From Candidatus Gottesmanbacteria bacterium (lineage in GTDB: Bacteria; Patescibacteriota; Microgenomatia; UBA10105; UBA927): DNA of 64,000 bases. The DNA is taken from contig JAHFKN010000001.1 in assembly GCA_023245355.1 (NCBI GenBank), forward strand, positions 2,057-66,056. The letters are read 5' to 3'. The translations under genes were made by a program, and so were the position numbers. Below are positions 7,262 to 63,005 of this stretch, in pieces. The notes beneath the pieces are model-generated. The model saw only the letters and a list, made by a program, of their open reading frames with translations. It ran no database searches and had not been told where the DNA came from. Positions within the stretch are counted from its first letter, which is position 1, and each line of letters begins with the position of its first letter.

Positions 7262-7276
7262 ATGTTTTTCCTTTTG

Positions 7277-7349
7277 GGTGGCTGACGGGTAATGCTCCCG
7301 CTGCTTCCTGCTCCACAGGCAGGCGCTCTACTTTTGAGCTACAGCCACC
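7277..7349 (-). tRNA. tRNA-His(GUG)
   Basis: Minus strand: G-1, GTGGCTG...CCTGC-CT-GTG-GA-GCAGG...CAGCCAC-C73. The G-1:C73 identity pair is present. The T-loop is atypical (GCGGG-AGCATTA-CCCGT). CCA is not fully encoded. Confidence 0.9.
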
Positions 7350-7361
7350 ATTTTTGCCAAT

Positions 7362-7418
7362 AAAAAACCTCCCGTTCGCTACGCACCACAAAACATGTGA
7401 TACGTAAGGAACGAGAGG
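7362..7418 (-). terminator. Intrinsic terminator of the His T-box leader
   Basis: CCTCTCGTTC...GAACGGGAGG followed by TTTTTT. Its 5' arm is shared with the antiterminator. Confidence 0.85.
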
Positions 7419-7600
7419 CCAATAAAAAAGGACCTCCCGCGGTCCCATCCTTCGTTTTCCGGAGTATTTCTCTCCGGAACTCTCAGGCCGACTCCGCGTG
7501 GGCGACATCGACTGTTGTATTTGACGGTTCAACTTCCGTAAGGCTTTTTGGCCTTCAGCTCGTGGATCGTGACTCCACTGATAGCGCTTTTCTATTCAAT
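7362..7600 (-). promoter_or_regulatory. T-box riboswitch, His-specific, with a very short Stem I
   Basis: T-box AACGAAGGA-TGGGACC-GCG (7438-7456) pairs with CGT-TCCTT. The variable bulge base G complements C73 of tRNA-His. The His codon CAC (7569-7571) lies in the loop of GTGGA-GTCACGA-TCCAC. A terminator follows. Confidence 0.85.
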
Positions 7601-7610
7601 TGTATTGGGT

Positions 7611-7638
7611 ATCATACTACAAATCCTTTAAATGTCAA
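7611..7638 (-). promoter_or_regulatory. Sigma70-type promoter of the T-box/tRNA-His/his operon
   Basis: TTGACA-16 nt-TATGAT on the minus strand, just upstream of the leader. Confidence 0.65.
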
Positions 7639-7655
7639 ATTCGTATCGGGGACCG

Positions 7656-12188: not shown

Positions 12189-12276
12189 GCCGAGGTGGCG
12201 GAATGGCAGACGCTCAGGTCTCAAAAACCTGTGAGGTTAACCCCTCGTGGAGGTTCGACTCCTCTCCTCGGCACCA
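12189..12276 (+). tRNA. tRNA-Leu(CAA)
   Basis: GCCGAGG...CAGGT-CT-CAA-AA-ACCTG, long variable arm, GGTTCGACTCC, CCTCGGC-A-CCA. Confidence 0.95.
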
Positions 12277-56597: not shown

Positions 56598-57785
56598 TCA
56601 GGATTCAATTTTAACAGCTTTTCGTCCGACTTCAATGGTGTCCCCTGCCCGTAACGCCGGCTCATCTTTGGGATTTGAAACCACGGCGCCGTTTATTTTT
56701 ACTGCTTTCTGCTCCACAAGACGCTTGGCTTCGGATTTGCTGGACAGAAGTCCGAATGCGACCAGTGTATCGGCAATCGTGCTCCGGGTTTTGAGCGTCC
56801 GCAATGAAACGACAGGTAATCTGGAATCGGCTACTCTGCCTTTCTGGAACCGTGTTTCAAATTCGGTCTGAGCCAAATCTGCGGCAGGCTGTGAATGCAG
56901 CTCCGTCACCATGCGGTGTGCGAGCTGCTTTTTGAGCGTCATGGGATTTTCTCCGTTTTTCAGGCGTGCTGCTATCGCTTCTATTTCCTCATGCGGAACG
57001 CTTGTCGCCAATGTGAAATACTGTTCAATCAGTTCATCCCGAAGCGACATGACCTTGCCGAACATTTCGTCGGGTTCATCAGTAAGCCATATGGCATTGC
57101 CCCAGCTTTTGCTCATTTTTCTGCCGTCGGTACCCTCTAAGAATCCGTTTGCGATGATAAAGGACTCTTTATTGCGGAGATCCTTCTGCAGAATACGGCC
57201 GGCCTGCATGTTAAACGTCTGGTCAGTGCCCCCGAGTTGGATATCCGTATCCATGAAATAACTGTCATATCCCTGCATTACCGGGTACAGTAATTCATGG
57301 AGACCTACTTTTTTTCCCTCCGTGAGGCGTTTTTTGATAAGCTCGCGCCCGACAAACTCACCGGCCGAAAAATGCTGAGTAAGTTTTACGATTTCCGTAA
57401 ACGCCAGTTTTTGGAGCCATTCGCTGTTAAACCGGACGGTTATCCTGGAAAAATCCAGTACTTTTTCCGCCTGCTTTTTGTAGGTTTCGAAGTTTGACCT
57501 GATTTGTTCGCTTGTCAGGACCGGGCGCTCGGCATCTTTATCCGACGTGTCCCCGATAAGCGCGGTGAAGTCTCCGATAAGAAACGTCACATTATGCCCG
57601 AGTTGGGAAAACGCGTTTAGTTTCCTCAAGGGGACCGCATGTCCGATATGAATATGCGTGGCGGTCGGATCAATCCCTAAATACACATTCAGCTTTTTTC
57701 CGCTGGCAAGAAGCTTCCGGAGCTTTTCCTTATCCGGAATAATATTTTCGACTCCCCGCGTGAGCAATTCTTCAATAGTGTCCAT
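56598..57785 (-). CDS. tyrS: Tyrosyl-tRNA synthetase
   Basis: GIDPT..HIHIGH, YPVMQGYD, GGTDQTFN, KMSKS, C-terminal S4 domain. Confidence 0.98.
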   Translation of the reverse strand: MDTIEELLTRGVENIIPDKEKLRKLLASGKKLNVYLGIDPTATHIHIGHAVPLRKLNAFSQLGHNVTFLIGDFTALIGDTSDKDAERPVLTSEQIRSNFETYKKQAEKVLDFSRITVRFNSEWLQKLAFTEIVKLTQHFSAGEFVGRELIKKRLTEGKKVGLHELLYPVMQGYDSYFMDTDIQLGGTDQTFNMQAGRILQKDLRNKESFIIANGFLEGTDGRKMSKSWGNAIWLTDEPDEMFGKVMSLRDELIEQYFTLATSVPHEEIEAIAARLKNGENPMTLKKQLAHRMVTELHSQPAADLAQTEFETRFQKGRVADSRLPVVSLRTLKTRSTIADTLVAFGLLSSKSEAKRLVEQKAVKINGAVVSNPKDEPALRAGDTIEVGRKAVKIES

Positions 57786-57818: not shown

Positions 57819-58946
57819 CTATTCTTCCAGAGCCTGTTTCAGATCGTTTACTATATCGTCCGGGTGTTCCAGTCCAACGGACAGGCGAAACAAATGCATA
57901 TCCGGTCGAAACTGTTCCGAAACGTCAGACCAATCCATCATAGACGCCGGATGCTGAATAATTGTTTCGACGCCTCCGAATGAATGGCTTATCAGGATGA
58001 GTTTTAGTTTTTTTGCGACAGATGCGGAATCAACATCGTGTTTCAGTACGAAAGAAACAAGCTGTCCTTTCCCGGACATTTGCTGCCGCACCAATAGCCG
58101 TTCAGCAGGGGTGTGGATTCCCGGCGTCATCACGTGTGTGACAAGCGGATGGTGATTGAGCCATTTTGCAACGATTTTGGCGGTTTGCTGCTGAGCCTTC
58201 ATCCGCACGGGTGCTGTTTTTATACCGCGCAATATAAGCGATGCCGAAACAGGGTCCAATACAGAACCTGTGGTCTGGGCAAGAAACCGTAATCTATCTG
58301 CCAATTGTTTATCGTTTGTGCCTATGAATCCGCCGAGCGCATCACTATGACCATTGAGGCCCTTCGTAAGGCTTTCTACAACGATATCAGCGCCATGCAT
58401 CAACGGATTTTGCAGCACTCCCGAGCATATAGTCGTATCCACGGCAAGCAGAGCGCCGTTGGTGTGAGAAAGCGACGCTATTTTACTGATATCTAGCACC
58501 CGAAGCGACGGATTTGTCGGTGTTTCTATCCACACGAGCGCAGGTTTCATTGTTCGTATTTGTTCTTCGGCGAGTATCAGGTCATGGAAGTTGACGGGAA
58601 CGCCCGTTACTCCAAAGGGTCGCATGACCGTATGCAGAATGCGCCGCGTCCCCTCATATAATTCGGTGTGGTGCAGTATCGTGCTGTGTTGCGATAACAG
58701 CAGACACGTCATGGTGATTGCCGCTGACCCGTTTGTCGTGGCAATGCCAAACGCGGCATGATGGATGCCCGCTACTACACGCTCTAAATCAGCCCTTGTC
58801 CGGTTATGAATTCTCCCGTACTGCGGTCCTGTGTCAGAAGAGAGCGTATCCATGGCAAAAATAACCGACGTATGGATGGGGGTAACAATATCCCCATCGG
58901 GCATAACCGGATTGTTCTGCTGGACACAAAATGACTGCATTTTCAT
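57819..58946 (-). CDS. Cys/Met-metabolism PLP enzyme (cystathionine gamma-lyase/synthase family)
   Basis: YGR..N.T, ETPTNP.L...DI, SLTKGLNGHSD, SFGGVETII.HPA.M, RLSVGLE...D...DL.QAL. Confidence 0.88.
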   Translation of the reverse strand: MKMQSFCVQQNNPVMPDGDIVTPIHTSVIFAMDTLSSDTGPQYGRIHNRTRADLERVVAGIHHAAFGIATTNGSAAITMTCLLLSQHSTILHHTELYEGTRRILHTVMRPFGVTGVPVNFHDLILAEEQIRTMKPALVWIETPTNPSLRVLDISKIASLSHTNGALLAVDTTICSGVLQNPLMHGADIVVESLTKGLNGHSDALGGFIGTNDKQLADRLRFLAQTTGSVLDPVSASLILRGIKTAPVRMKAQQQTAKIVAKWLNHHPLVTHVMTPGIHTPAERLLVRQQMSGKGQLVSFVLKHDVDSASVAKKLKLILISHSFGGVETIIQHPASMMDWSDVSEQFRPDMHLFRLSVGLEHPDDIVNDLKQALEE

Positions 58947-58952
58947 ATGTGT

Positions 58953-59879
58953 TTACTCCTTTTTGGTAAGAACTATGTTGTGCCGCATGCACATAAGCGG
59001 CGGCGTATGACTGTCATTCCCGAACCTGCTTTTTAGATCACTGACGATAAACCCCAGGCGCTGCCAAAGGCCGATGTGATCCCCCAGCCCCCGGAACCAT
59101 TCCCCGTGTCCGTTTGGGTCTTCACCGAATACGACAAATCCGCCCGGGTGCTCAATTTCGATTAGTTTTCCCCGCACGCTTTCCATATCATTGCCGAATT
59201 CACGTTTAAATTGCGCCAAATCATATATATGATTTTGCAGTGCATCAGTGACGGCCGTGCTTTTTCGGGTGCCATGGGAAAGATCTATACCCTGCCGGTT
59301 TTCTGATATCGGCAACAATTCGCTTGTCGATATGTTGACGATAGACGTGCCACCCGGTTTAAGAATCCGGAATGTTTCCGCATCAATCTCCCTGTCAATA
59401 TTGGGAGGACAGCAGTTGCCGGTATGATCCCTGATGACAATGTCTACGGATCCGTCAGCTAGATCGGTATGGCGTGCATCGATAAGGTGCGGAAAAACGT
59501 GGGAAAGTGACTTTTCCCGTTTCAGCCTGCTCACCTCGTTTATAATATCCTCATCAATATCGATGATATGAAAGTTACTAAGCGTAGTGTTTAGCGCATG
59601 ATGGACAAAGCGCTGTGTATCTTCCACTCCGTCAACACTTGCAAGCCCCAGCATCGCAACCGAAAGCGGACGCCGGTTTATCCGCTTTGAGAGCAGATGA
59701 ATGCCGGACATTTCTGATAAAAGCTGCAGATTGAGGCCGACGGGCGGCGTCCGGTTCAGGAGTTCTTCTGACAAGCCCTCCGCATCCATACGCGCCCTCG
59801 TTTCTTCGTAACCGCTTGTTCTGCGTAATCCCCTACCGAACTCATTGCCCAACGACCGCGATATTTCTTTATCATTCAT
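58953..59879 (-). CDS. Class I SAM-dependent methyltransferase-like protein
   Basis: MLG, IIDID, DAR..DL.DGSVDIVI and FRILKPGG strands; GGAGG RBS. Confidence 0.6.
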   Translation of the reverse strand: MNDKEISRSLGNEFGRGLRRTSGYEETRARMDAEGLSEELLNRTPPVGLNLQLLSEMSGIHLLSKRINRRPLSVAMLGLASVDGVEDTQRFVHHALNTTLSNFHIIDIDEDIINEVSRLKREKSLSHVFPHLIDARHTDLADGSVDIVIRDHTGNCCPPNIDREIDAETFRILKPGGTSIVNISTSELLPISENRQGIDLSHGTRKSTAVTDALQNHIYDLAQFKREFGNDMESVRGKLIEIEHPGGFVVFGEDPNGHGEWFRGLGDHIGLWQRLGFIVSDLKSRFGNDSHTPPLMCMRHNIVLTKKE

Positions 59880-59918
59880 ATATACCTCCTAATCCGTGCT
59901 AAATATTAGGTACACGGG

Positions 59919-60003
59919 TGCTGAGGGGAGGATTCGAACCTCCGTAGCCCTTCCGGGCATCCCGTTTACAGCGGGACGCATTTGTCCACTTTGCTAACTC
60001 AGC
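59919..60003 (-). tRNA. tRNA-Tyr(GUA)
   Basis: Minus strand GCTGAG...TCCCG-CT-GTA-AA-CGGGA, long variable arm GCCC-GGAA-GGGC, GGTTCGAATCC, CTCAGC-A73. Confidence 0.93.
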
Positions 60004-60010
60004 TTTTTTA

Positions 60011-60066
60011 AAAACAAAAAACCCCGACCTCATCCCTGACTAGCTCAGGAACAAGGGCGGGGTTTT
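60011..60066 (-). terminator. Intrinsic terminator of the Tyr T-box leader
   Basis: AAAACCCCGCCCTTGTTCCTGA...TCAGGGGATGAGGTCGGGG followed by TTTTTTGTTTTT. Confidence 0.85.
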
Positions 60067-60345
60067 GACACCACGCGGTACCACCTTGGTTTGCTAAGGT
60101 ATTTTAGCCACAAAAAAACCGACCCAGAGGTCGGTTCTACCTTAGCCTCGTTTGTGAGCTCCGCAGATGGCGACACTCACATTCTGCTGTTACGGGCTTA
60201 CCCGGATCGGTTTACTTTTTCCTATTCAACCTTTCGGCTCCAGAGAGTATTTCGTAAGTAATTTATCGGGAGATCTTGCACCAACCGTCTCCTCTCTCTT
60301 GTCTCAAATTACCCGCTACTTCGTCTCTTTCTATGCCTTTCCTAT
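60011..60345 (-). promoter_or_regulatory. T-box riboswitch, Tyr-specific, with a canonical long Stem I
   Basis: T-box AAACCAAGG-TGGTACC-GCG (60074-60092) pairs with CGC-CCTT. Stem I carries AGTA, AGAGAG and GGTGCAA motifs and the specifier GAAA-TAC (60247-60249). Stem II AGTA and CCCGTAA elements present. The U in the bulge complements A73. Confidence 0.93.
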
Positions 60346-60361
60346 TCAATTGTTGATTGAA

Positions 60362-60390
60362 ACTGTATCATAATTTGTCATTTTTGTCAA
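60362..60390 (-). promoter_or_regulatory. Sigma70-type promoter of the T-box/tRNA-Tyr/tyrS operon
   Basis: TTGACA-17 nt-TACAGT with an extended TGn on the minus strand. Confidence 0.55.
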
Positions 60391-60401
60391 TCCTCGCTAC
60401 A

Positions 60402-63005
60402 ATGGATTCCGTGATAGAAATGTCAGATTTATTCAGTGAGAGGCAGAGGAGAAAGCTATTCGGCACTTCTGTGTCGCGCATAAAACTCTGGAGTATCGTA
60501 GCGTACGGCGGGTTTATCGGATTCGTTGTTCTCATATTATTTACCGGTATTTTATTTGCCTGGTATGCCAAAGATTTGCCCCGTCCCGACAAAGTACAGC
60601 GGCGTGAAGGACTCTCTACGGTCGTGCTCGACAGAAACGGAGAAAAGCTCTACGACATTTTCGAGGAAGCAAACCGGATACCGGCCAAATGGGATGAGAT
60701 ACCCCAATATTTAAAAGATGCGACGGTCGCCGTAGAAGACAAGGATTTCTACCGGCATCAGGGATTGTCCACGACAGGTATCATGCGCGGACTGTTGGCC
60801 TGCGTTTTTTTGCGGAGGTGTCAGGGAGGATCCACGCTGACACAGCAGCTGGTCAAAAACGTACTCCTGAGTCAGGAGCGTACGCTGCCGCGCAAGATGA
60901 AAGAGGCAGTGCTTGCCATTCAGATCGAGCGCAAATACAGCAAGAACGATATTCTTCTCATGTATCTGAACGAAGCTCCGTACGGAGGCACGGCGGTAGG
61001 GGTAAAAACTGCGGCCGAGCATTATTTTGACAAGCCGGTAAAAGATCTCTCTCTTATCCAGTCTGCGATTTTGGCCGGACTACCTCAGTCGCCGAGTTAC
61101 TATTCTCCCTTTACCGGTACGGAAGGAGCATATAAGGACCGCACGGCACATGTATTGCGCAGGATGCGAGAAGAAGGATTTATCACGCCGGCTCAGGAGA
61201 GCGAGGCCCGGAAACAAATGGACACTATAACATTTGCCGCCGGAGATGCCAGCCTGCGCGCACCGCATTTCGTCGCGTATATCAAAGAATTGTTAATTGA
61301 CCGGTTCGGCGAAAAACTGGTTAATGCCGGAGGTCTTACCGTTACGACGACGCTCGACTGGAAACTTCAGGAAGCAGCCCAGCTTGCCGTGAAAGAGGAA
61401 GTGGATAAAGCCAAAAAACTGAAAGTGAGTAACGGAGCTGCGGTCGTTTTGGATCCTGCTACCGGAGAAATCCTCGCTATGGTGGGAAGCAAAGATTACG
61501 CTGCAACAGACAGTTCAGGGCTCAAATTTAATGTCGTCACCCAGGGGTTACGCCAGCCGGGTTCTACCCTCAAGCCGATTATTTATGCGGCAGCGCTCAC
61601 ACGCGGGTACACGGCCTCGTCCATGCTGATGGACGTGGAAACGAAATATCCGTCCGGCGATCCTGCAAAACCTGAATACAATCCGAAAAATTATGATAAT
61701 AAATACCGCGGTCCCATGCAGCTCCGGTATGCGCTTGCCAATTCCATTAACACGATTGCGGTAAAAGTAGCTGCATTGGACGGAGTCAAAGACGTGCTGA
61801 AATTGGGCTACGCGATGGGACTTAAAACGTGGGAGCCCACTGATGAGAATTTGAAACGGGTCGGGCTGTCTCTGCCGCTGGGAGGAGCCGAGGTGACGAT
61901 GATGGATATGGCAACTGCCTACGGTGTATTAGCAACCGGAGGCAAGCGTATGGATTCCGTGGCCATTCTCAAAGTGGTGGATACAAGCGGGAAAACGCTG
62001 TATGAATATACTCCTGCTGCTGCCCGCGATGAGCTGGAGCCGGAAGTTTCCTTTATCATATCAAGCATATTATCCGATAATGACGCCCGCAAAGAAGTGT
62101 TCGGATTCAAATCCTACCTGGTTATTCCCGGTAAAACGGTAGCGGCCAAAACCGGTACGACGGATGACAAACGGGATAACTGGACGGCAGGATATACCAA
62201 GAACCGCGTCGTCGTGACGTGGGTAGGCAATAACGATAATACCCCGATGAGCCCGACGCTCGCCTCCGGTGTGACAGGGGCTGCTCCCATATGGAACCGG
62301 ATTATGCGCGAGGCACTCAAATCTATGACTGACCAGCCGTTTGACCGGCCCGACAATGTAATCGAAATGGATATCGACGCATTCGGCGGCGGGCTTCCGT
62401 TCGAAAATCAGCCGACCCGTAAGGAATTTTTTGTGAAAGGAACGGAGCCTACCGGTCCGGCAGCCATTTACCAGAAGCTCAAGATTTCCAGAAAAGATAC
62501 TAACAAACTCGCAAACAGCGTAGAAGTGGCAACCGGCGACTATGACGAAAAGCTTTTTATCGTTCTGCGTGAAGATGACCCCGTATCCGGTGACGGAAAA
62601 AACCGCTGGCAGGACGGTATCAACGCATGGATACAAACGGCCGACAGCAAATATAAGGCTCCGACGGAAACATACAGCGGCGGTGATTCCAATCAGGTCG
62701 TATTGCAGGTTAAAAAGCCCAATGATAATGAGCGGATAAACAACAATAATATAACGGTGGAAGCAACGGCTATTTCAACTGCCGATATCGAGCGGTTTGA
62801 AATTTTTGTCGACGGCAGTAAGGTGAAGGAAAAGAGCAATGAAAAATCTATTTCCGAATCGATAAACGTGCCGAACGGTTCACACATTATCAAGGTGAAA
62901 GCCATTGATAAGCGGGGTACCTCTGCGGAGCGGGAACTGCACGTAGGGATCAATCAGGATTATGCGGCACCGACATCCACTCCAACTCCTCTCCCTACTC
63001 CGTGA
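60402..63005 (+). CDS. Class A penicillin-binding protein (transglycosylase/transpeptidase) with an Ig-like C-terminus
   Basis: EDKDFY.H.G, QGGSTLTQQLVKN, RK..E, YLN; QPGSTLK (SxxK), SIN (SxN), KTGT. Confidence 0.95.
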   Translation: MDSVIEMSDLFSERQRRKLFGTSVSRIKLWSIVAYGGFIGFVVLILFTGILFAWYAKDLPRPDKVQRREGLSTVVLDRNGEKLYDIFEEANRIPAKWDEIPQYLKDATVAVEDKDFYRHQGLSTTGIMRGLLACVFLRRCQGGSTLTQQLVKNVLLSQERTLPRKMKEAVLAIQIERKYSKNDILLMYLNEAPYGGTAVGVKTAAEHYFDKPVKDLSLIQSAILAGLPQSPSYYSPFTGTEGAYKDRTAHVLRRMREEGFITPAQESEARKQMDTITFAAGDASLRAPHFVAYIKELLIDRFGEKLVNAGGLTVTTTLDWKLQEAAQLAVKEEVDKAKKLKVSNGAAVVLDPATGEILAMVGSKDYAATDSSGLKFNVVTQGLRQPGSTLKPIIYAAALTRGYTASSMLMDVETKYPSGDPAKPEYNPKNYDNKYRGPMQLRYALANSINTIAVKVAALDGVKDVLKLGYAMGLKTWEPTDENLKRVGLSLPLGGAEVTMMDMATAYGVLATGGKRMDSVAILKVVDTSGKTLYEYTPAAARDELEPEVSFIISSILSDNDARKEVFGFKSYLVIPGKTVAAKTGTTDDKRDNWTAGYTKNRVVVTWVGNNDNTPMSPTLASGVTGAAPIWNRIMREALKSMTDQPFDRPDNVIEMDIDAFGGGLPFENQPTRKEFFVKGTEPTGPAAIYQKLKISRKDTNKLANSVEVATGDYDEKLFIVLREDDPVSGDGKNRWQDGINAWIQTADSKYKAPTETYSGGDSNQVVLQVKKPNDNERINNNNITVEATAISTADIERFEIFVDGSKVKEKSNEKSISESINVPNGSHIIKVKAIDKRGTSAERELHVGINQDYAAPTSTPTPLPTP

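Follow-up and report, generated by a model that had tools for sequence, protein, structure and literature searches.

We describe a T-box leader that stands directly ahead of a gene for its own cognate tRNA, in a 64,000-nt stretch of DNA from a very small groundwater bacterium of Candidatus Gottesmanbacteria (assembly GCA_023245355.1, contig JAHFKN010000001.1, positions 2,057 to 66,056 of the forward strand; the whole stretch is hereafter called the window). Our reading, to which we give a probability of about two in three (0.68), is that a tyrosine-specific transcriptional T-box heads an operon whose first product is an extra copy of its own ligand, tRNA-Tyr, and whose last gene is tyrS, with the tRNA being excised from the transcript. 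T-boxes are the textbook example of an RNA that senses a tRNA, and their known targets are aminoacyl-tRNA synthetases, amino-acid biosynthesis genes and transporters. The elements of the unit, their order, spacing and copy number, and their conservation and covariation in relatives were determined directly. All parts of the unit (promoter-like site, T-box leader, tRNA-Tyr(GUA) and three open reading frames (ORFs) ending with tyrS) lie on the minus strand, and the regulatory part is composed as follows, in window positions.

60362-60390, minus strand: promoter-like site, TTGACA, 17 nt, TACAGT, with TG before the -10 hexamer (10 of 12 consensus matches)
60050-60342, minus strand: T-box leader with Stem I, Stem II region, Stem III and the antiterminator/terminator 5' half (Rfam RF00230)
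60247-60249, minus strand: specifier UAC (Tyr), from the model alignment; the 3' side of the specifier loop is GAAAUACU
60112-60134, minus strand: nested hairpin CCGACC-UCUG-GGUCGG followed by U7 within the Stem III loop, read from the alignment
60074-60087, minus strand: T-box sequence AAGGUGGUACCGCG, from the model alignment, with the bulge UGGU at 60083-60080
60010-60066, minus strand: terminator, a hairpin (60066-60018) plus U6GU5 ending at 60010, from folding
59917-60003, minus strand: tRNA-Tyr(GUA), from ARAGORN and Rfam (53.2 bits), its end placed at 59917/59919
59885-59917, minus strand: small hairpin CCGUG...CACGG (59917-59913 / 59898-59894), then Shine-Dalgarno AGGAGG (59890-59885), with the ATG at 59879

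The leader matches Rfam RF00230 over the full model (positions 1-219) with 94.7 bits (gathering score 93) and an E-value of 1.8e-19. It is the one Rfam T-box of the window, the remaining gathering-level matches being three tRNAs. The preliminary description of this DNA had proposed a T-box with a UAC specifier and a terminator ahead of tRNA-Tyr(GUA), two further genes and tyrS, and this arrangement is borne out on the minus strand. Specifier and bulge fit the adjacent tRNA as had been claimed: UAC corresponds to the anticodon GUA, and UGGU is complementary to an A73-C-C-A end, A73 being present in both tRNA-Tyr genes of the genome (at 59919 in the linked gene). The closeness of terminator and tRNA holds as well, with a measured gap of 6 nt (six A's) in place of the roughly 7 nt first given. 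The terminator region folds with -40.3 kcal/mol (z -4.62) and none of 200 shuffled sequences folds as well. By the model alignment, the antiterminator uses as its 3' strand what is also the 5' strand of the terminator hairpin, the shared segment being CCCCGCCCUU, so that the two structures are mutually exclusive. By every sequence-level criterion the leader is thus a member of the T-box family as an RNA, and the downstream genes agree with this, the unit holding tRNA-Tyr and the only tyrS of the genome.

An additional feature of the leader is the hairpin nested in Stem III. Hairpin and U run are conserved in related Tyr leaders despite differing stem sequences, and are also visible in Phe and Trp leaders and in Tyr leaders from other families. 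The element resembles an intrinsic terminator (GC-rich stem of 6 bp, loop of 4 nt, U7), lies upstream of the T-box sequence and may be a pause site or a first checkpoint. Two further ideas about this region were dropped: a leader peptide starting from GUG/AUG behind the U run within the Stem III insert, for which the reading frames are not conserved, and an alternative pairing between the 3' strand of Stem II and the nested hairpin, which fits the window and, by eye, does not fit L014 (L numbers denote loci and G numbers genomes throughout).

The linked tRNA starts (G1, 60003) after the six A's that follow the U tract. It has the long variable arm, the G1-C72 pair and the A73 expected of a bacterial tRNA-Tyr, and its 3' flank is CC, so that CCA is not encoded. 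The source genome (G000; 1.275 Mb, 12 contigs, 95% complete) contains two tRNA-Tyr(GUA) among its 50 tRNA genes, the linked copy and a housekeeping copy that lies in a Thr-Tyr-Thr cluster on a separate contig (C10 73950-74035). The two are 69% identical; acceptor stem, anticodon loop and A73 are common to both, and the other stems differ by paired changes. A housekeeping tRNA-Tyr was likewise found in five of five tested congeners that bear the linked tRNA. Within the genus, the linked copies of G000, G001, G008, G009 and G012 are 75-91% identical to each other and 62-75% identical to the housekeeping copy of their own genome. G004 has a linked copy of housekeeping type, sharing 88-90% identity with the housekeeping genes found in G001 and G008. 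This pattern of identities indicates that the linked gene is an older paralogue, evolving faster than the housekeeping gene and with at least one replacement in its history.

When 13 linked copies are aligned, their cloverleaf is paired in 96.6% of cells, and 15 of 25 pairs, including all five of the anticodon stem, have changed on both sides; none of 500 shuffles and no slid register comes close. The GUA anticodon is kept in 12 of the 13 copies, G009 being the exception. Judged by this covariation, the linked tRNA is a maintained extra gene and not junk. The preliminary description suggested that expression of the tRNA is set by its own charging state. The cognate placement under a T-box stands; total tRNA-Tyr would not be set by charging alone, because the linked tRNA is an extra beside a housekeeping gene. 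As a separate observation, the linked tRNA-Tyr(GUA) of L154 (G379) has a short variable region and A1-U72, unlike bacterial tRNA-Tyr, and the same genome carries a T-box-linked tRNA-Trp (L178).

We propose the following course of events. Transcription would start at the promoter-like site (60390-60362). An uncharged tRNA-Tyr would bind UAC of Stem I through its anticodon and the UGGU bulge through its free ACCA end; the antiterminator would then form, and RNA polymerase would read through the terminator (60066-60010); the tRNA-Tyr sensed could come from the housekeeping gene or from the linked copy. The read-through transcript, made as one RNA, would hold both tRNA and mRNA. RNase P would cut at G1 (60003), some other activity would cut on the 3' side after A73, and CCA would then be added. 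The products would be an extra tRNA-Tyr and an mRNA freed of its 340-nt structured leader, starting with the small hairpin and Shine-Dalgarno sequence at 59885-59917, which we predict to be the mRNA 5' end once the tRNA is removed. Low charging of tRNA-Tyr would in this way raise synthetase and tRNA together. A search for sequencing runs containing the locus listed 20 of DNA and none of RNA. The same CCCGTG...CACGG+GAGGAGG follows the tRNA or a tRNA-like element in G009, G001, G005 and G014, and the source genome encodes a candidate RNase P RNA (72.7 bits, E 1.9e-22) and a protein of the CCA-adding-enzyme family (104.5 bits).

Such processing has functional parallels. The transcript of the Escherichia coli tRNA-tufB operon contains both tRNAs and the message of a protein gene, which RNase P and further nucleases cut apart; unlike the unit in the window, that operon is not known to be under a riboswitch sensing the same tRNA. 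In the Bacillus subtilis thrS T-box leader, an endonuclease cut within the leader stabilises read-through transcripts and leaves a 5' hairpin. In the window, too, most of the T-box leader would be removed and a 5' hairpin left on the mRNA, whereas the cut would be made by tRNA-processing enzymes at the embedded tRNA.

A search across a sample of the class (the Microgenomates group) shows that the pairing of T-box and tRNA is not specific to this locus. We sampled 401 genomes evenly from the class and 373 from other classes of the phylum, and searched them with a strict pattern (GGTGGNACC, 80-250 nt, GGTTCRAWTCC). Within the class there were 31 matches in 28 of the 401 genomes; a reversed-pattern control gave 1 match, a control that does not model the abundance of tRNA T loops. 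Sorting with ARAGORN, Rfam and a leader profile divided the 31 into 17 loci with T-box, terminator and intact tRNA, 3 with a degenerate element, and 11 chance matches. The 17 intact loci span 15 genomes and 7 families. The 373 genomes from other classes gave 13 pattern matches, none of them a T-box, for a background of about 0.03 per genome. By the strict pattern the design is thus found in 18 of 401 genomes of the class versus 0 of 373 elsewhere in the phylum, and it is patchy within the genus, so that the 'lineage-wide' design of the preliminary description was overstated.

In the 17 intact loci the tRNA is specific for Tyr (13), Trp (2), Phe (1) or Arg (1), and the amino acid of the specifier is that of the tRNA in every one. 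A random relation between T-box/tRNA adjacency and amino-acid identity, which would have spoken against the preliminary description, is therefore not what the 401 class genomes contain: adjacency is non-random as to amino acid and cognate throughout. More specifically, the specifier context is UAC in 13 of 13 Tyr loci and UUC followed by A in the Phe locus. At the two Trp loci UGG was read by eye in a short specifier region, and one of the two leaders fails Rfam at E 0.01. The Arg locus (L158) has the specifier CGA followed by G and the bulge UGGC; behind it stand tRNA-Arg(UCU, A73) and tRNA-Arg(UCG, G73), the second of which is an exact fit to both specifier and bulge. At one Trp locus an Rfam group I intron match (L153:2497-2754, plus strand; 51 bits, cut-off 50) lies about 1 kb from the T-box/tRNA-Trp module.

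Closer to the window, 40 relatives were searched at the DNA level and 14 loci then examined with Rfam, which revealed a homologous T-box in 13 of the 14 (49.5-93.8 bits). The tRNA is adjacent in six of these 13, namely G001, G004, G008, G009, G012 and G023 (973 nt away in the last). Within the genus, an intact linked tRNA is present in G000, G001, G004, G008, G009 and G012, and a degenerate tRNA-like element in G005 and G014; G007 and G013 have neither. Such elements are also absent from G018, G026 and G027. We additionally compared 80 tyrS-centred loci from named Microgenomates assemblies, which partly overlap with the G genomes. These share a fixed frame of a penicillin-binding-protein gene (opposite strand), tyrS and recG. 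Gottesmanbacteria-like records have an insertion of 1-4 kb between the penicillin-binding-protein gene and tyrS, and in many Levybacteria-type records tyrS is directly beside that gene. Of the 80 loci, 19 have a leader-profile match upstream of tyrS and 3 have one downstream; ARAGORN placed a tRNA between leader and tyrS in 8 of the 19. No T-box was found with Rfam (E<=0.01) in L114, L044, L046, L048 and L075, tyrS loci of close relatives that had no nhmmer match. When 31 distinct related leaders are aligned, every one has the specifier UAC, in the same column, and UGGU. T-box core and tRNA are 84-92 nt apart in 5 of 13 loci, and 153-214 nt or 455-1007 nt apart in some relatives.

These data bear on whether the tRNA is under the T-box at all. 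It could be that tRNA or later genes have a promoter of their own and that the T-box merely attenuates transcripts ending at its terminator. In a consensus scan of the minus strand within 59700-60500, the sole promoter-like site is the one about 20 nt upstream of the T-box, and none was found between leader and tRNA or between tRNA and first ORF; the promoters of these organisms are uncharacterised, so such a scan may miss host sites, and this leaves the separate promoter some room. So do relatives in which a structured spacer of 60-130 nt, or whole ORFs, separate terminator and tRNA. Against it, 6 nt between U tract and tRNA in the window, the short core-to-tRNA distance in 5 of 13 loci, and relatives whose next ORF begins at the tRNA 3' end offer a promoter little or no space, no promoter-like site occurs downstream of the leader on the minus strand, and a T-box that regulated nothing would not keep its specifier in all 31 leaders. 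Over the operon body, promoter-like sites (7 vs 6.5 in shuffles) and terminator-like sites (9 vs 6.9) are at shuffle level. We regard a separate promoter as very unlikely. The preliminary description's placement of the tRNA inside a leader-to-tyrS unit appears correct.

A more serious alternative concerns what the tRNA is for. Several loci first scored as a T-box without tRNA hold a tRNA-like element of 69-96 nt directly after the Tyr T-box terminator. Such an element retains the acceptor stem (6-7 bp), the discriminator and the T arm with GGTTCGAA; a different hairpin takes the place of the D and anticodon arms. There are three unrelated forms with this same sub-structure, at the following loci.

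L014, L015, L041 and L042: tRNA-like element
L043, L047, L058, L160 and L169: tRNA-like element
L163: tRNA-like element

Form 1 occurs in G005 and G014, where small hairpin, Shine-Dalgarno sequence and methyltransferase gene follow as in the window; type 2 is that of L043, L047, L058 and L169, and type 3 that of L163. At L043 a housekeeping-type tRNA-Tyr lies two ORFs beyond the remnant. The part of a tRNA that processing enzymes recognise consists of its acceptor stem and T arm. Among 10 relatives examined, 8 have the ATG of the next ORF no more than about 2 nt from the annotated tRNA end (L151, L153, L154, L167, L171, L173, L178 and L179; typically ...GCAC-T-ATG, with ACCATG in L178, and without Shine-Dalgarno sequence). 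This position of the ATG implies leaderless or nearly leaderless mRNAs, which tRNA 3' processing would generate. Because the remnants keep the enzyme-recognised part of the tRNA and the next ORF so often begins almost at the tRNA end, the comparison suggests that the processing role is itself under selection.

In mitochondrial 'tRNA punctuation', excision of tRNAs sets the ends of neighbouring mRNAs, which are often leaderless. The ATGs at the tRNA end in relatives resemble this situation; the unit differs in its bacterial, chromosomal setting and in having just one tRNA, joined to a T-box, and the mRNA of the window would keep a 39-nt leader with a Shine-Dalgarno sequence. The tRNA might be kept chiefly as a processing signal, its excision stripping the T-box leader and setting the mRNA 5' end, with the released tRNA-Tyr as a by-product. 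The three types of degenerate element, which keep acceptor stem and T arm and not the anticodon arm at the same position, favour this view, as do the abutting start codons, the faster evolution of linked than of housekeeping copies, and the G009 copy, retained after losing its anticodon. For a processing signal alone, however, any tRNA would serve, yet the tRNA is cognate in 17 of 17 loci and for four amino acids. Compensatory changes preserve the D, anticodon and variable arms across the 13 linked copies, 12 of which have GUA, and at this position G004 and L043 have a tRNA of housekeeping-like type, which suggests that a full tRNA was newly recruited. Because identity is cognate across four amino acids and anticodon and variable arms covary, the full tRNA would seem to be wanted as well, and we consider a role restricted to processing unlikely.

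A functionless, decaying duplicate or an assembly artefact would explain some of the same irregularities. In G009 a direct repeat of 27 nt and the first 11 nt of the tRNA precedes the linked tRNA, whose anticodon loop is mutated, and remnants occur in several species. Conversely, the arrangement recurs in independent assemblies from at least 15 species and 7 families, strong covariation preserves the cloverleaf, and the remnants keep the same sub-structure in three independent forms. Decay or artefact is hardly credible as an account of the locus.

Several observations nevertheless weigh against an operon that senses and supplies tRNA-Tyr as we propose. On the side of the leader, its score barely exceeds the Rfam gathering score (94.7 vs 93), the specifier is followed by U in the window (U or C in the clade), a purine being usual, and the nested hairpin with U7 (60134-60112) could end transcription ahead of the T-box decision. 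As to processing, a search of G000 for the RNase Z equivalog found none (best match 23 bits), and the RNase P RNA match is under its Rfam gathering score. The linked tRNA-Tyr itself carries a U7.C66 mismatch, and within the genus the linked copies are more divergent (75-91%) than the housekeeping copies (mostly 82-99%). In G009 (L011/L165) the anticodon loop reads CGGUUAG and ARAGORN calls Asn GTT, with the tRNA-Tyr body and the UAC of the T-box retained. G005 and G014 have only the tRNA-like remnant, and G007 and G013 have nothing. The lost anticodon of G009, together with the remnant-only or empty loci, indicates that the supply of tRNA-Tyr from this locus is dispensable.

The genes of the unit that follow the tRNA are these.

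58953-59879, minus strand: methyltransferase-like ORF, 308 aa (Pfam Methyltransf_11, 24.7 bits, a weak match)
57819-58946, minus strand: Cys/Met-metabolism pyridoxal-phosphate (PLP) enzyme of the cystathionine gamma-synthase/lyase family, 375 aa (Cys_Met_Meta_PP, 323 bits)
56598-57785, minus strand: tyrS, tyrosine--tRNA ligase, 395 aa (TIGR00234, 342.9 bits vs a cut-off of 113.8)

From A73 to the first ATG there are 39 nt, and the ORFs are separated by 6 nt and then 33 nt. The first two genes have no evident link to tyrosine. A class I S-adenosylmethionine (SAM) methyltransferase fold is indicated for the 308-aa protein (model pLDDT, the predicted local confidence, 88.2; best Foldseek matches to assorted SAM methyltransferases, E ~1e-9); it has no NCBIfam match, and the Foldseek search indicates no substrate and nothing tRNA-specific. 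The best NCBIfam match of the 375-aa protein is cystathionine gamma-synthase (280 bits), below all equivalog cut-offs. tyrS is single-copy in G000 (one match; 95% completeness of the genome applies). Downstream of it, recG follows after a 157-nt gap that contains a terminator-like hairpin.

The cargo between tRNA and tyrS varies among relatives: the methyltransferase plus PLP enzyme of the window, a different methyltransferase plus a MetE-like protein, an Asp/Glu racemase, or a protein resembling tyrosyl-tRNA synthetase (TyrRS); a cupin also occurs in the space between the penicillin-binding-protein gene and tyrS. The synthetase, named as part of the design in the preliminary description, is not always in the unit. 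There are three different modules in which a methyltransferase follows the linked tRNA: that of the window, that of L161/L164/L168 and that of the Arg locus L158. The idea that the tRNA serves as an integration site behind the variable cargo found no integrase among the cargo ORFs listed. Separately, the cargo of L114 (L114:1813-5971), a locus with no detectable T-box, holds genes for making aromatic amino acids, those for DAHP synthase, prephenate dehydratase, a chorismate mutase-like protein, prephenate dehydrogenase and an aminotransferase.

The TyrRS-like protein, of 275-315 aa and named only 'hypothetical', starts at the 3' end of the linked tRNA-Tyr in at least five families. Its representatives are located as follows.

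L167:605-1486, minus strand: TyrRS-like protein
L151:1634-2461: TyrRS-like protein
L171:657-1487, minus strand: TyrRS-like protein
L173:1663-2577: TyrRS-like protein
L054:1692-2639: TyrRS-like protein

The family comprises 59 clusters at 90% identity and corresponds to no Pfam family; against Pfam, three of five members gave weak tRNA-synt_1b matches (E 0.05-0.16), and a sequence-profile search of the PDB yielded chance-level matches only. An AlphaFold 2 (AF2) model (pLDDT 93.6) matches archaeal TyrRS structures in Foldseek with E ~2e-8 and a template-modelling (TM) score of about 0.6. The HIGH position is not conserved: in a weak profile alignment to the TyrRS of the window (probability 7%), non-HIGH residues stand opposite HIGH and GHDE opposite GYDS. 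In L153 and L178 the T-box-linked tRNA-Trp has a distant relative (28% identity, E 4e-4) behind it. In G000, at 95% completeness, the TyrRS-like protein was not found.

Such neighbours raise the question of whether the linked tRNA is a dedicated substrate of a tRNA-dependent enzyme in the operon, the TyrRS-like protein in relatives and perhaps the methyltransferase in the window. Its placement at the tRNA-Tyr 3' end in at least five families, the archaeal-TyrRS-like model, the distant relative behind tRNA-Trp and the methyltransferases behind the tRNA in three modules are in keeping with this. For the window it fares poorly, given that G000 has no such TyrRS-like protein among its detected genes and that the methyltransferase there resembles many unrelated SAM methyltransferases and shows nothing tRNA-specific. 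As a general explanation we find it improbable, and we retain the reading in which the T-box controls an extra tRNA-Tyr together with tyrS.

The preliminary description counted two such loci in the window. The Tyr locus stands, and the second, a His locus, has weaker evidence, as described below. G000 contains about 10 extended T-box cores, two of which precede a tRNA (Tyr and His). In its set of 50 tRNA genes, a TGGNACC core occurs in the 300 nt upstream of just two, the linked tRNA-Tyr and tRNA-His (window 7348..7276); tRNA-Leu at 12189 lacks one over that distance, in line with the statement that it has no such leader.

7276-7640, minus strand: His leader, tRNA-His and a hisG-like ORF, with hairpin GUGGA-GUCACGA-UCCAC (CAC in the loop) and AAGGAUGGGACCGCG

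The His leader has no Rfam match at E<=1. It does carry the CAC loop, AAGGAUGGGACCGCG with a UGGG that fits C73, and two terminator-like hairpins, and it is common to 6 species, in 4 of which a tRNA-His-like gene follows. This tRNA-His is a second copy that lacks the usual D-loop GG and has an aberrant T loop (AGCAUUA). A T-box-tRNA pair for His is plausible from these motifs, on weaker evidence than for Tyr. Seven further T-box-like leaders in G000 fall below the Rfam cut-off (22.5-47.8 bits), most with a very short Stem I. Those at C5:26562-26759, C4:213809-214173, C11:3317-3518, C4:259352-259468, C5:72796-72921 and C4:288372-288486 are among the leaders that precede serS, glyA...glyS (two in tandem), argH/argG, ileS, aspS and a second glyS. 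In two of these leaders, those of ileS and serS, the terminator U tract runs directly into the start codon (TTTTTTTATGG), without a Shine-Dalgarno sequence.

The leader of Bacillus subtilis tyrS is the founding T-box (PMC2879506). The window shares with it antitermination, as predicted here, the UAC specifier, a UGGN bulge reading the acceptor end, competing antiterminator and terminator, and, by prediction, control of tyrS. It differs in that the first gene after the terminator is the cognate tRNA and two unrelated enzymes come before tyrS, in the nested hairpin with U7 in Stem III, in the U after the specifier, and in its host, which belongs to the Patescibacteria (candidate phyla radiation, CPR) and is not a Firmicute. 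A survey of T-box regulons assigned 62% of targets to tRNA ligases, 18% to biosynthesis, 12% to transport and 8% to other functions (Wels et al., 2008; PMC2494555), and the wording 'tRNA gene(s)' does not occur in that survey, nor does it in a 2020 review (PMC7583486); in the TBDB paper it is used only for choosing the ligand tRNA (PMC7778990). In the surveyed regulons (PMC2494555, PMC7778990), as in the window, T-box specificity corresponds to the amino acid of the downstream genes; unlike in the window, tRNA genes as targets go unmentioned there. Full-text literature searches found no tRNA gene described as a T-box target, although survey supplements and TBDB tables might list such cases, and found nothing on T-boxes in Patescibacteria. 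What is new relative to known T-boxes is therefore the target, a cognate tRNA gene as first gene.

Extending the argument from the window to the class, we tentatively suggest, with a little less than even confidence, that Microgenomates T-boxes have time and again acquired the gene of the tRNA that they sense (for Tyr, Trp, Phe, Arg and probably His), giving a self-referential module in which tRNA charging governs how much more of the same tRNA is made, that the embedded tRNA doubles as a processing site freeing short-leader or leaderless mRNAs, and that some of these mRNAs encode a hitherto unnoticed TyrRS-like protein lacking the HIGH motif, which possibly uses the co-encoded tRNA. A T-box that drives the gene of the tRNA it senses would add a new class of target and a feedback loop on the ligand itself. 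Such a loop would bear on the balance of tRNA and synthetase in very small genomes that have a single housekeeping tRNA gene and a single synthetase. Embedded tRNA and tRNA-like elements suggest that bacterial tRNA excision may be used for riboswitch removal and for making leaderless mRNAs, and the loci draw attention to a TyrRS-like protein family, so far uncharacterised, that is tied to tRNA-Tyr.

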